64,000 nt of DNA, from NCBI GenBank assembly GCA_023205875.1, contig CP060756.1:62001-126000 (forward strand), in the 5' to 3' direction. Numbering within the stretch: position 1 is the stretch's first letter; each line of letters starts with the position of its first letter. This DNA comes from Chloropicon primus (taxonomy: Eukaryota). A model generated the notes under the pieces. The model saw only the letters and a program-made list of their open reading frames with translations. It had not been told where the DNA came from and did not search any database. The position numbers and the translations under genes were made by a program. Of this stretch, positions 44,192 to 63,999 are shown piece by piece.

Positions 44192-44470
44192 AGGGGAACC
44201 GCCTGGCCGTGCAAAAGACGGACGAGCTGTGGGGTCTCAGGCTGACGATGCAGCGGATAAGGGAGTTGGTCAGCGCGAAGAAGGTCGCGGAAGGACCCGC
44301 GACGGACCAAGTCGGGAACTCTTCCGTTCAGTCCGACGTCTGCAAGCTGTGAGCAGCAGTAGAAGCTTGGATTATAAGTCATCGTAACGACAGACAACGG
44401 TGTGTATGACGGTGTGTTCATTCATTCATTCATTCATTCATTCATTCATTGGCCCTTGTCAAGCAATCCT
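44192..44470 (+). repeat. Internally deleted duplicate of the bZIP gene 3' end and 3'UTR
   Basis: 44192-44217 matches 45308-45333; 44221 to about 44470 is near-identical to 45475 to about 45700. Confidence 0.9.
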
Positions 44471-44739
44471 TCCTCCCTATAATCTGATCCCTTGGTTCGC
44501 CGCGGTCTCGGACTTCAGAGCCTCTAGAATTCGAGGGAGGAAGAGCCCTCTAATCTAAAAAAAAAATGTCAACATAGAGGGGAACTAGCGACGGCAACTA
44601 GCGACGGCGACGGCGACGGCGACTTGTGGCGACCCTACCTCCTTCCATTGTTGCGTACCTCGACCTCGAACCCTGGCCTGGCATCATCTCACAGCACCGC
44701 ACCGCAGCATCCAGGGAAGGAGAAAGAGATTCAAAGGCC

Positions 44740-45014: not shown

Positions 45015-45606
45015 AGGCCACCTGCCGGACGCCCACGGGAACTACTGCGGGAACTGCTGCGCGCTCCAAAAGGATGAGGTCAAAGAGGAAGTCGACCTGG
45101 ACACGGGGCTGGCCACCTGCGGCGGGTTGGGCGCTTTCCAGGCGACTCTGAACGGTGCAGCGGGCATAACCCAAACAGCGGGCAAGGTGATCCCGGTGAC
45201 CTCGGAGTGCCCCGCCGTGGTGCAGCACGAGCACGAGACGTTCTTCGAGGGAGGGGTCGAGTACAAGAAGTGCACCCAAGTCCGCAAGGTTCAGTCCAAG
45301 TGCAAGAAGGGGAACCGCCTGGCCGTGCAAAAGTACAGGCAGAAGAAGAAGAACGAGTTTGAGATGCTGAAGAAGGAGAACGCCGAGCTCAAGGCCAAGG
45401 TGGCGAAGCTCGAGAGCATTGTCAAGTACTGCCGCGGCGGGGACCCCAACAACGAGACAACGGCGAGTCAGGCTGACGAGCTGTGGGGTCTCAGGCTGAC
45501 GATGCAGCGGATAAGGGAGCTAGTCAGCGCGAAGAAGGTCGCGGAAGGACCCGCGACGGACCAAGTCGGGAACTCTTCCGTTCAGTCCGACGTCTGCAAG
45601 CTGTGA
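44740..45606 (+). CDS. bZIP transcription factor, group F-like (intron 44819-45016)
   Basis: GNRLAVQKYRQKKK basic region plus leucine zipper; Cys/His-rich N-terminus. Confidence 0.75.
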
Positions 45607-45703
45607 GCAGCAGAAGAAGCTTGAATTATAAGTCATCGTAACGACAGACGACAGTGTGTATTGTATATCATTCATTCATTTGGCCCTTGTCAGCAATCAT
45701 TCC

Positions 45704-59192: not shown

Positions 59193-61011
59193 ATGAGAGG
59201 GGTTGGGGTGTGCGCGGGGTGGAGGGCAGGGCGCGGGAGCGTCGCGAGTGTCGGAAAATGGAGGGAGGAGTTCGGGACGAGGACGAGGACGACGAGGACG
59301 AGGACGACGAGGACGTGCAAGGCTGCCTCGACGTCGAGGGACGGGGCCAAGGGGACCGCGAGGCCCTCCCTGGCGAGGAAAGCCATCGCGGGGCCCGCCA
59401 AGGACGTGCTCGGGGACCAAGTCGAGGAGGAGGTTGGCGTGGAGCCTCAAGTCCGAAAGTAAGTAACAACAAACGAACAAAAAAAAACGCATCAACATCA
59501 ACCCACTCTGTGGTCGGATTAATGAACTGAGCGAGCGTTTCGTTTTTCGTTTTCTCTGCCACTGCAGGACCAAGATTGTGGCGACGATCGGGCCGGCGAC
59601 GTCCTCGTGGGAGACATTCTCGGCGCTCGCGACCAGCGGCGTGAACGTGGCCCGGCTGAACATGTCCCACGGCGACCACAAGTCGCACGGCGAGGTGGTC
59701 GACCTCGTGAAGCGCTACAACAAGGAGAACAACACGGGCATAGCCATCATGCTGGACACCAAAGGGCCCGAGGTCCGGAGCGGAGACTTGGTGGAGCCCA
59801 TGGAGCTGCAGCCGGGGGAGGAGTTCACCTTCACGATCACGCAGAAGGGCCTCAAGTCGAGGAAGAACACGTGCACCGTGAACTACGACGACTTTGTGAA
59901 CGACGTCCACGTGGGAGACCTCCTGCTGGTGGACGGCGGAATGATGAGCTTCGAGGTCGTCAGGATCAAGCCAAAGGACGTGGAGTGCAAAGTGGTTGAC
60001 GGGGGGGTGCTCAAGTCCCGGCGGCACCTGAACGTCAGGGGGAAGAGCGCCAGCTTGCCCTCCATCACGGACAAGGACTGGGAGGACATCGACTTTGGCG
60101 TGAAAGCTGGCGTGGACTACTACGCGTTGTCCTTCGTCAAGGACGAGCACGTGGTTCATGAGCTCCGGGACTACTTGAGGAAGAAGCAGGCGGACATCAA
60201 AATTTTGGTCAAGATCGAGAGCGCCGACTCCATTACCAACCTGGACAAGATTCTGGAGGCCACGGACGGCGCCATGGTCGCCAGGGGGGACCTCGGCGCC
60301 GAGCTTCCCGTCGAGGAGGTGCCCATACTCCAGCAGAGGATCGTGCAGACCTGCAGGAGGCTCGGCAAGCCCGTCATCGTGGCCACGAATATGCTGGAAT
60401 CCATGATTGACTACCCGACGCCGACCAGGGCAGAGGTTTCGGACATCTCCATCGCGGTCAGGGAGGGAACCGATGCTGTCATGCTCTCCGGGGAGAGCGC
60501 GTACGGCCAATTTCCCTACAAGAGCGTCCAAGTCATGAGCTCGGTCGCAGGAAGGACGGAAAAAGCTTTGGAGCTCTACTCTGGGATATCCCGTTTCGGC
60601 AGCGCGAACAGTGATCCCATCACTTGGATCGACGGCCAAGACAGGACGATGTCGGAGGTCCTTGCCTACCACGCCACGACGATGGCGAATACCATCAAGT
60701 CCCCCGTCATCGTCTTCACCAGGCACGGGAACATGCCGAGGCTCGTGAGCCATTACAGGCCAAAGAGCATGATTTTCGCCTTCTGCGAGAACGAGGCCAT
60801 CCAGAGGAACCTGAACCTGTACAACGGCATCCGACCTCTCCACCTCAAGTTCGGCGCCGACAAGGAGGAGACCTTCGGGAGGGCCCTGGATCTGCTCAAG
60901 GCCAAGGGGTACGTCCGCGCGGGGCAGGAGGTCACCGTCGTGCAGAGCGGAACCAGGCCCATCTGGAGGCAGGTGGGTGCGCACACCATCCAGGTCATTG
61001 AGGTGGAGTGA
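59193..61011 (+). CDS. PK: Plastidial pyruvate kinase (intron 59459-59567)
   Basis: RK|TKIVATIGP, RLNMSHG, DTKGPE, KIES, MVARGDLG, VMLSGE; transit peptide. Confidence 0.96.
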
Positions 61012-61115: not shown

Positions 61116-63003
61116 TCATATGTCCCTTCTACTATATCTGCAAACGCCGTTCACAAAGGTGTGGAGGACAACTGGCTTCTCTTCCACCTCAAGGAGATCG
61201 CGGTCGAGGACAACGAAGTCGCACTTCTGGCCTTTCTGCAGCCGCCCCACCAAACCCTTTGCCCCAGCCGCTTCGGCCGCGTTGCTTGTGATCGCCCGGA
61301 ACCCTTGTTCGCGGCTTACGGCCTCCTCTGGCACGTGCCTGCGTCCACTTGTGGATTCCAAGAGGCTTCCAAGAGGGTCCAGCGGCGCTACCAAAGGCCA
61401 GTCGCTTCCAAAAGCAATCTTGACCCCCCGATCGAGCATCGATTTGAATGGAAAGCTGCGACCCTTCCCCGATCTCACACTTCCTAGCTTCTCCAACATC
61501 GTCCTCGCGTCGTCCTGGATGTGGAGAGGGTTGACAACGGCGTAGATCTCGGCATCTCGGATTCTGTCCAACGCTCCCGAGCCGCTGACGTGTTGTACGT
61601 GCTCCAAGCGATTCGGGTTTTTCGACCGACTGCCAGCTGCTGACAAGATCGCGCTCGCTTCATCAACGGCAAGGTCGCCGATCGCGTGCACAATCGCTTG
61701 CAACCCCCTCCCCGTCGCATTCGCCAGCCTCTCTTGCAGCACCGCGCGATCCTCATGAATCCTTAAGCCTCTGTTGGTCGTGCCCTCGTACGGCTCGTTC
61801 ATCAGGGCGGTTTCGCTACCCAGCGAGCCGTCATAGAACTCCTTCACGCAGCCCCAGCTTAGCATCCCCAGCGAATCTCCGTTCTTCTCGACAAACGAAG
61901 CGAGGGAGTCGTACAAGTCGAGTGGCACGCACGTCTGCACTCTAAGCGTTAGCTCGTCCTGAGCTGCAATTTCCATCCACACATCAACAAGATCCGACCA
62001 GCACTCGTCCGCTGACTGAGCAAACGCGGGTGTCCCCATGTCCGAGACCATCGTCACGCCCATGCTGTTTGCGTAGGCCATTGCTTTCATGATCGAATCC
62101 TTCCTTTCCCCCTTTGATGGTTTTGGTTGGAGGCTCCTCACCATCGCGATGGCCGTGTCCGTCAGAATTCCCGTCGGGCTGCCCCCAGCGTCTCTCTCGA
62201 TCTTGCCCCCAAGCGGGTCCGGCCTTGAGGTTATGTTGGCCATTGCGAGGAGGTAGAAGTTGACAAGGGCTCTGTGGCCGTCCGCTCGAAGGATCAGCAC
62301 CGGGTTGTCGGGCGTTGCTTGGCTAATCCAACCGGCGTTTGGCATCTCTCCCAGCTTTCTCTCGTCAAAACCATAGCCTATGAGCCACGCCCCGGGTTCG
62401 AGATTCGCTGCTCGGTCGCGCACCCTCTCGATAAAGTCAGCTCTGCTGGTGGCATCACGAAGGTCCAATTGGGAGAGGAAGCTTCCTCCCATGATGAGGT
62501 GGGCGTGCGCATCCACGAGCCCGGGAAACACGTACTTCCCTTCCAGATCCACTGCCTCGATAACGGATCCCTTTAGCCTCTCACGAACACCCGCCTCCTC
62601 CCCGACATCTAGAATATCTCCCAGTGCGTTCGAGACAATCGCTCCTTTCCGCACAACTGCCTTCCCCGTGTTCAACGTGAAGTTGAAGAAGAATCTCGCG
62701 GGGTGGTCTCTCGCTTCTGGTCCTCCTCCTCCACCTCCGCCCGATCTGTGCGACACAAACACGAGGACGAGGTACGAGACGCAAGCCACCAACCAAGTTG
62801 TCCACGTCACCCACTTCGATCCCGCCATCCTCCTCCACGCACTCTGGAGCAGCACCTTATATCTCGATGACCTCAAACGTGGTCCGTTTCCGCCAAGTTC
62901 GGGTTCATTGCAAAGATCGCGAGACGAAGTTTCTCTGATGATCACACCTCCCTCGCCAACGCCCTCCTCTGTCGCGCTCAAACCGCCCCCCGAACTCGCC
63001 CCT

Positions 63004-63034
<31 letters not shown>

Positions 63035-63059
63035 CTCCAGCGCCTCGAAGTGACTCCAT
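61116..63059 (-). CDS. Amidohydrolase 3 family (YtcJ/LAF3-like)
   Basis: PGLVDAHAH, DGSLGS, HAIGD, RLEH, FGSDWP; N-terminal TM. Confidence 0.92.
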
Positions 63060-63246
63060 GAGTGTACCGAACGAAGGCTCTCTTAACTCTTGTTATGGTG
63101 TTCAGACATCAGATCAAAAACAGCACACAGAAAAGTCACGAAAGGACGGTAAGATAATCACAGTCAATACTGGAAGCACAAAGGCAAGTTCTCCTTTCCA
63201 CTGAAAGAGAGAAACACGGAGAGAACGGAGACCGGCCCCTACTTAC

Positions 63247-63380
63247 CTGTTAGTTTTCTGCAAAGGTCGTTTCACCGAGTTTGTAAGTTTCTCGGCAGGG
63301 TAATTCGGCCCTACCACGACCATTCCACCGTACATGAACGAATACTTCCGCCCACGCACGGCAGCCCGTACTAACAAACG
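63247..63380 (-). ncRNA. Candidate Fanzor omegaRNA scaffold
   Basis: Directly after the nuclease stop: a 15-bp hairpin with five G-U pairs (63328-63361), a GGTCGT/ACGACC multiloop, and a closing TGTTAGT/ACTAACA stem. Confidence 0.7.
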
Positions 63381-63399
63381 TATGTGCAACCCTGAGGAG

Positions 63400-63999
63400 T
63401 TACACACTTTTTGGTTGACGCAAGTGCTTCAGGAGGACGTTGCGTGCCCCGTTCACATCCCGACCGCACTTGAAGCCACACTTCTGGCACTTGTACACCT
63501 CTGCTCCACCCAGGTTCTTCTTGATGTGTCCGCACCTGCCACAGGTCTTGGAGGTGTACTCCTCCGTCACGATCGCCAGCTCACTGCCGTGCAAGAGCAC
63601 CTTGGAAGCCAAGAACGTTCTGAACGCATAGTGCCTCAACGTCAAGAGCGTGCGAGCCGTCTTCTTCCTGATCACTCGGCGTCTCCCGTTGTTGTTCTTC
63701 TTCACCATGTCTTGGGACTTGAACTCCGGGAGGAGGATTGTGTCGAACCTCCTGCATAGATCGTTGGCTACCTTTTTGTGAAGCTCGTTCGTCAGACCTC
63801 GAAGTTTCTCCATGCAGGCGTATTGCTGTCTCTTCAAGTCGCGGCGGTCGAGGTAAGGGAGCTTCACCTTTGGGTCTTTGCGCTCGGAAATGATCTCATC
63901 AATCCTCCAGCAGAGGTTGAACAGCCTCGCGAAGCCTCGCTCGCCCTTGGCATACTCCCCGACGCCTTCTTGCGGCGAGTACGACGTCTGAAAGGTCCT
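63400..63999 (-). CDS. Fanzor2/TnpB-like RuvC RNA-guided endonuclease, 5'-truncated by the window edge
   Basis: Frame open to the edge: RTFQTSYS (post RuvC-I), LHKKVANDL, LLPEF, HYAFR, VTEEYTSKTCGRC, CQKC, RDVNGARN. Confidence 0.92.
   Translation of the reverse strand, partial: RTFQTSYSPQEGVGEYAKGERGFARLFNLCWRIDEIISERKDPKVKLPYLDRRDLKRQQYACMEKLRGLTNELHKKVANDLCRRFDTILLPEFKSQDMVKKNNNGRRRVIRKKTARTLLTLRHYAFRTFLASKVLLHGSELAIVTEEYTSKTCGRCGHIKKNLGGAEVYKCQKCGFKCGRDVNGARNVLLKHLRQPKSV

Follow-up and report, generated by a model that had tools for sequence, protein, structure and literature searches.

Fanzor2 transcripts of Chloropicon primus leave their element at the predicted scaffold end: a candidate splicing route to a guide RNA

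The guides of TnpB and Fanzor nucleases derive from the DNA adjoining the element, and capture of such an element by a transposon with its own ends is a problem: how are the scaffold and the flank brought together in one RNA? The question is raised by the window analysed here, a stretch of 64,000 nt of Chloropicon primus (contig CP060756.1 of assembly GCA_023205875.1, positions 62,001 to 126,000; all coordinates below are those of the window), which holds the 3′ part of a Fanzor2 gene on the minus strand (63400..63999, 199 aa in the window, the gene continuing past the window end). The published answer is that the TIR and the TSD are folded into the scaffold; the element in the window appears to splice its end away.

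The 63400..63999 ORF matched PF07282 (Pfam, E 9e-19) and contained EEYTS, the zinc finger and GRD; the DPG motif falls just beyond the window edge and is carried by the proteins that are 97-99% identical. The features of a Fanzor2 nuclease were found in this combination: RuvC with DPG, the E displaced to near the zinc finger and the final D, together with a predicted structured omegaRNA region behind the ORF. The ORF was open in the window and full length in many copies. In protein comparisons it was 97-99% identical to a “putative IS605 transposase” of C. primus (723 aa), a product found in clusters of 46 and 12 members (non-Fanzor fragments included among them), and 25 such genes have been reported from the genome (PMC6731263; papers given by identifier are cited from the accessible portions of their text). 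As copies of the element are 97-99% alike, i.e. young, their retention of the donor described below is no evidence of selection.

The C. primus Fanzor2* of Yoon et al. belongs to the same species and the same protein family (97-99%). It was described as captured by a non-autonomous, non-IS607 transposon with TIRs and a variable 5-nt TSD (bioRxiv 10.1101/2023.08.09.552727, PMC10711439), and as a family from which the serine recombinase TnpA is absent (bioRxiv 10.1101/2023.08.09.552727). The P0002 sequence was found in the protein table of that work (PMC10711439), the accessible supplement of which held protein rows and no text on element ends; in its accessible part, PMC12633428 only mentions the family. 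Searches for other copies of the element were negative in viral contigs with the window protein (0 of 9 stretches) and in metagenome contigs (0 by pattern, 0 of 584 by P0003), and a 16-nt pattern gave 96 matches in viral contigs, none with similarity to Fanzor or to the element. Relatives at 48-66% identity (P0005-P0010) were present on metagenome contigs of 1.4-5.2 kb. An amidohydrolase ORF of the same orientation follows the window element, its first ATG about 30 nt downstream (63045-63090), and the gene models P0004, P0146 and P0135 fuse Fanzor to downstream host ORFs; a sense-orientation bias of the insertions is possible.

Predicted scaffold and right end of the element

An initial annotation of the window had drawn attention to a series of splice-like letters behind the Fanzor gene, which were confirmed: CTAAC-AG at 63253-63247, GTAAGT at 63246-63241, a pyrimidine tract, and TTTCAG ending at 63201, the unit from the GTAAGT onwards totalling 46 nt. 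CAGGTAAGT occurred once in the window, both strands included (0.17 expected). The predicted omegaRNA scaffold covered 63247..63410 of the minus strand, with an uncertain 5′ end and with its 3′ end, ...AAAACTAACAG, placed at 63247 from the fold and from a profile of relatives. The region 63225-63420 folded at z -4.8 (0 of 200 shuffles were equally stable); the scaffold region had no Rfam match (63000-63500 searched). A terminal stem of seven Watson-Crick pairs was predicted between its 5′ strand (63370..63376, minus strand) and 63254-63248, with a mean pair probability of 0.88 in the scaffold alone. The annotation had proposed that such a stem hides a branch site in CTAAC: the stem is indeed predicted, but CTAAC-AG does not qualify as a branch point plus acceptor, the AG directly abutting the motif. 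This AG is the exon side of a donor and also the inherited C-N-G end of the scaffold. A single-copy, diverged fragment of the scaffold (63291-63389), carrying an insertion of 5 nt and continuing into other sequence, was seen in run X1 and is possibly a Fanzor-free ghost copy.

Six of 20 sequencing runs were analysed, as assembled contigs and not as reads: X1 and X2 (DNA), and X3, X4, X6 and X7. Assembled contigs carry no strand or level, and contig depth was not used as a measure of expression. In X2, one unbranched contig with no other letters ran through 63241-63300 at a depth of 4700 vs. 137.6 for the single-copy flank, i.e. 34 times single-copy across the junction; the depth of the scaffold in X1 was 3573 vs. 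109. Contigs break where copies branch, so the copies of the X2 sample continue CTAACAG into GTAAGT. No loose end at 63245-63247 was found among the six listed for X2 or among the six listed for X1. The flanks diverged only at 63087-63094 (at least six contigs in X2, and also in X1, X3, X4 and X7), and the element therefore ends at 63091, 156 nt beyond the scaffold. This true right end reads ...CACCATAACA (63091..63100, minus strand; reverse complement TGTTATGG), from loose ends at 63087-63094 in both DNA and RNA. The junction at 63247/63246 is thus not the end of the element, as had been assumed, nor is it a mobile IS607 end at a GG core: the published carrier has TIRs and 5-nt TSDs, and the divergence of the flanks at 63091 agrees with it. 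The mobile right end does not coincide with the scaffold end at a core dinucleotide, as it would in IS607, and an element end beyond which the flanks vary, as in Fanzor2*, was located at 63087-63094.

The 156 nt between the scaffold and this end are the right arm of the carrier (63091..63246, minus strand), which was high-copy in DNA and would be an intron body without an acceptor of its own. The last 79 nt of the arm were free of AG (654 of 20000 arm shuffles and 275 of 12786 window 79-mers were likewise), a signal of modest significance (p ~0.03), and a branch-like CTGAT had its A at 63109, 20 nt ahead of the predicted acceptor. This acceptor is the first AG beyond the end (63090-63089), within the predicted 5-nt TSD (63090-63086) of the host flank (63069..63090, minus strand; delimited from the X6/X7 pair at another copy described below), and the predicted guide of this copy would start at 63088. 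RNA cover was absent at 63045-63086 and is uninformative. A second LTR copy should give a loose end of high depth where the arm borders the interior of the element; none was among those listed. Two variant copies were observed. One had a single-copy right arm that passed at 63157 into an unrelated, coding-like stretch (X2, X4); in the other the arm stopped at 63125 and was followed by AG (X4). An apparent preference for AG at the insertion sites (about 5 of 7 full-length ends) was rejected, since flanks starting with AG are easier to place and 6 of about 34 flanks were visible in X2.

Joins at the donor in RNA

The first intron of a pyruvate kinase gene (59459-59567, plus strand, 109 nt, GT..AG) served as the RNA control. 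It was retained in X2 and spliced in X3, X4 and X7, which are therefore RNA. X6, an RNA-type run that offered no such control, gave Fanzor as one unbranched contig and left the right arm uncovered. RNA contigs also extended from pyruvate kinase into the convergent amidohydrolase gene (61116-63059, minus strand), which suggests overlapping 3′ ends for these two genes.

Fanzor transcripts leave the element at the predicted scaffold end and resume in sequence beyond the transposon end. The 5′ splice site, CAG|GTAAGT (63241..63249, minus strand, cut between 63247 and 63246), is common to the copies of the family. In X3 and in X4, runs of two studies, the main scaffold contig starts exactly at 63247, vs. 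63241 for the DNA contig, and at least five loose ends fell at 63245-63247 (two in X3, two in X4 and one in X6, with 18 of the 22 loose ends listed). At least four distinct foreign sequences were joined at the donor, one of them identical in X3 and X4 and so seen by two studies; three of the five joins lay within one base of the canonical donor cut and the others fit it if shared letters are allowed. X7 showed no join at the donor among the loose ends listed, five loose ends having been dropped at repeats. Unspliced RNA contigs cross the junction as well (depth 170 in X4, 34 in X7). Taken as a whole, the contigs leave little doubt that CAG|GTAAGT is used as a donor in RNA. A reading in which further copies stop at 63247 ahead of differing flanks was rejected, the runs concerned being RNA and the DNA unbranched there.

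One join could be followed to its acceptor. In X6 the scaffold continued after CTAACAG into GATGGAATCG..., and in X7 the same sequence followed ...CCATAACA-AG at the element end; both pieces are 47 nt long and agree in 29 of 29 overlapping printed letters, so that the skipped part starts with GTAAGT, ends with the first AG past the element and measures about 158 nt. This GT..AG case pairs two different samples, the X7 path consisting of separate contigs, and an AG acceptor was traced for one of four joins. No contig showed the spliced form of the window copy itself. A GT donor that acts in RNA, with no break there among the DNA loose ends listed, fits a U2-type intron running from 63246 to an AG past 63091, and the jump of the transcript from the scaffold end likely arises by spliceosomal removal of the 156-nt right arm. 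The position of the first AG past the end varied between copies, being +3/+4 in one flank and about +24 in another.

Origin of the junction and possible roles of the spliced RNA

Relatives of the window protein were compared at 159 viral and bacterial loci (about 40% protein identity), 148 of them with enough downstream sequence; comparison of copies defined a right boundary in 78 of the 148, and 70 were without one. The right end was C-N-G in 70 of the 78 loci (CTG 43, CAG 14, CGG 13; 8 without the motif), 44 of these 70 ends lying at the modal boundary itself, and GTRAG directly followed the C-N-G end in none of the 70. A profile of 12 distinct 11-mers gave its highest score among 330 positions to the register that ends at 63247 (8.9 bits; -1.6 one base further), in a test that is partly circular, the motif having been required for inclusion, and that draws on relatives of about 40% identity. 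In these relatives the last two scaffold letters are the insertion core, and GAG stood at the left junction in 12 of the 14 CAG-ending rows, the other two being near-identical loci without a real boundary.

CAG ends were found in cyanobacterial IS607 pro-Fanzor loci (L181, L190-L192, L195, L202, L223, L224, L243 and L245-L248) and CTG ends in others (L176-L179, L222, L230, L234, L235 and others), the left junctions of these families being GAG or, mostly, CTG/GTG. These combinations of right and left ends indicate AG and TG cores beside the usual GG core, and the families that carry them would be natural sources of TnpBs with other TAMs. The IS607 core overlaps the TAM (bioRxiv 10.1101/2023.11.20.567912), so an AG-ending scaffold suggests an AG-ending TAM, which for the window Fanzor2 is predicted across about 40% identity; a TAG TAM is known for another Fanzor2 in a terminal-repeat element (PMC10432273).

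These observations may be combined as follows. An IS607 ancestor with an AG core would have landed on a CAG|GT site and would then have been captured by a terminal-repeat transposon, an event that would have placed 156 nt between scaffold and flank. Splicing from the donor to the first usable AG past the end would restore the scaffold-flank fusion that TnpB and Fanzor need; each such guide would be preceded by AG in the genome, as would fit an AG-ending TAM; and the nuclease could then cut the empty allele, which, the alga being diploid, would favour homing of the element or its retention. On balance, we lean slightly towards the spliced scaffold-flank product serving as a putative guide. The more specific form of this reading, a spliceosome-assembled guide in which the arm serves as an intron without acceptor, the inherited AG of the scaffold end forms the exon side of a perfect donor, and the insertion site provides in its first AG both splice acceptor and TAM end, has about an even chance of being correct. 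If true, each transposition would reprogram the nuclease through splicing, and alternative acceptors could yield several guides per copy.

The main weakness of the guide reading is self-protection, the first AG lying away from the end in two flanks. Where this AG is several bases past the end, the occupied and the empty alleles share TAM and target, and the element could cut its own flank. GAG, moreover, is a poor splice acceptor. The GAG preference of the relatives and the length of the Fanzor2 TAMs in publications (3 nt; PMC13565253, PMC10432273) both weigh against this reading.

The main rival is a real splice that has no function, a relic or by-product, which we consider possible, if somewhat unlikely. 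The donor would be retained from insertion at AG|GT, and read-through transcripts would be spliced to any downstream acceptor, giving chimeric mRNAs, perhaps useful for 3′ end formation, and no working guide. The target rule of an AG-core IS607 element would itself bring it to AG|GT, and nothing more is needed to account for the exact register of scaffold end and donor; the youth of the copies (97-99%), the distance of the first AG from the end in some flanks and the gene models that fuse Fanzor to downstream host ORFs (P0004, P0135, P0146) agree with this. With a relic splice, however, the nuclease would have nothing to direct it to the place where its element is inserted, although the reading frame is open in the window, many copies keep it at full length, and the predicted scaffold is strongly folded (z -4.8). 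Splicing to any acceptor also sits poorly with an arm that ends AG-free with a branch-like motif, and with two internal pyrimidine-CAG acceptors (at 46 and 77 nt) that showed no joint.

An improbable alternative is that the nuclease is guided by the fixed sequence GUAAGUAGGGG... of the unspliced RNA, with carrier copies that lack Fanzor, or some other constant site, as its target, and that splicing switches this guide off. Unspliced RNA contigs do cross the junction in X4 and X7, and the first 6 nt are common to the family; the copies vary soon after 63241, however, and among those listed there was no carrier in DNA whose arm was intact but preceded by other sequence, with the exception of one single-copy loose end (63157). 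Folding bears on the same point. The probability of the terminal stem was 0.006 with 20 nt of the unspliced arm vs. 0.91 with 20 nt of the flank of this copy, and the unspliced arm is accordingly predicted by the model to displace the stem; the comparison, which also lends the guide reading weak support, has little power, since of 150 random 20-mers placed after an AG 16 were as bad as the unspliced arm (median 0.32) and the probability falling to 0.25 once the flank was lengthened to 46 nt.

It is very improbable that the joins are DNA variants or assembly artefacts, in which copies without a right arm would sit directly on other flanks. The evidence consists of contigs only, X6 is unproven as RNA, and the RNA and DNA samples differ; against this, the DNA contig was unbroken at 63247, the part missing in the X6/X7 pair had exact GT..AG ends, two studies gave an identical join, and the joins fit the canonical donor cut.

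The 46-nt unit of the initial annotation (63201..63246, minus strand) proved to be part of the arm and no intron by itself. A joint of 63247 to 63200 was not listed in any of X3, X4, X6 and X7 (0 of 4 RNA-type runs); in the proven RNA runs the unit was spliced in 0 of 3 vs. 3 of 3 for the control intron, and contigs crossed it unspliced in X4 (63156-63275) and X7 (63117-63276). Its adenosines lie only at +3, +4, +7 and +45, which leaves no usable branch point, and a 77-nt alternative ending at 63170 had no joint either. The six intron-like units of a motif scan were predicted at 92-209 nt, and the confirmed intron has 109 nt. The proposals that the whole element is a spliceosomal IStron ending in CTAAC-AG, and that a 46-nt intron swaps the guide to UGGAAAGGAG, are as written largely refuted and scarcely credible: the motifs are present, and a second donor at the left end, outside the window, would remain compatible, but the absent joint, the missing branch adenosine and the short length all speak against them, and an acceptor at 63247 needs GTAAGT RNA joined to a foreign upstream exon, of which there was none among the loose ends listed.

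Removal of the whole element finds no support in a donor that stands behind the scaffold and so limits what is removed to the 156-nt right arm. The guide swap was partly borne out: the GTAAGT donor is used in RNA, with joins at 63247/63246, but the acceptor is not the TTTCAG at 63201, where none was listed. Insertion of the element at a host exon/intron junction, also put forward, does not hold for this copy, since the family as a whole shares the junction; it may instead describe the ancient capture event.

Relation to known systems

The element belongs to the known Fanzor2* family, in which, as in Fanzor1, Yoon et al. predict the scaffold to take in TIR and TSD (PMC10711439). In the window element 156 nt lie between the end of the scaffold and that of the element, and these appear to be removed by splicing, a difference drawn from comparison of text, their figures possibly bearing on the placement of the end. 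The accessible main text of the preprint (bioRxiv 10.1101/2023.08.09.552727) contains neither “intron” nor “splic” (0 occurrences). Fanzor ORFs that are interrupted by introns are already known (PMC10530073). A description of an intron between scaffold and guide was not found in the literature covered, in which subscription journals were thinly represented, and a spliceosomal intron between scaffold and flank is apparently undescribed.

Another likeness is to the IStrons (IS605/IS607 with a group I intron; bioRxiv 10.1101/2023.11.20.567912), in which one junction likewise serves splicing and omegaRNA. An IStron splices itself out whole, with the end of its scaffold as 3′ splice site, and splicing and omegaRNA function are mutually exclusive (PMC13565253). 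In the window element the scaffold ends at a 5′ splice site, the spliceosome likely takes out the right arm alone, and a guide would be the product of the reaction. The coincidence of the scaffold 3′ end with a 3′ splice site and the removal of the whole element, which define an IStron, were thus not found here. No Rfam match to a group I ribozyme was obtained in 63000-63500; such a ribozyme would lie in the left part of the element.

Introners offer a second comparison: a terminal-repeat transposon contributes one splice site, the AG is co-opted from the target duplication or the flank, and the whole element is removed (PMC11282704). Here, in contrast, the element's own RNA supplies the upstream exon, and splicing does not mask the insertion. 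The IS607 pro-Fanzor TnpBs of cyanobacteria and large viruses (about 40% identity) share the C-N-G ends, their CAG class matching the scaffold end of the window element, but differ in having the flank directly behind the scaffold and no GTRAG donor (0 of 70). For the carrier, TGTTATGG fits the TGTNR terminus of Ginger/Gypsy-type elements (pattern from PMC2836005). TDD-4 and TDD-5 of the Ginger2/Tdd group have 5-bp TSDs (PMC2836005), and the likeness of the window carrier to this group lies in the TGTNR terminus, a transposase, left end and long TIR not being among the features seen in the window; for carrier identity the terminus, a resemblance of sequence, is a lead only.

If the spliced product is the guide, it would be a guide RNA made by the spliceosome, the reverse of the conflict between splicing and omegaRNA in IStrons, and an OMEGA system directly adapted to eukaryotic RNA processing. 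Prediction of the guide from DNA alone would then give the wrong sequence for this Fanzor, and splicing-controlled guides for Pol II expression are suggested. The reading is sharply testable in a species with a finished genome.

Elsewhere in the window, two near-identical stretches about 1.25 kb apart on the plus strand (44337-44480 and 45591-45700) probably represent the 3′ ends of tandemly duplicated genes.
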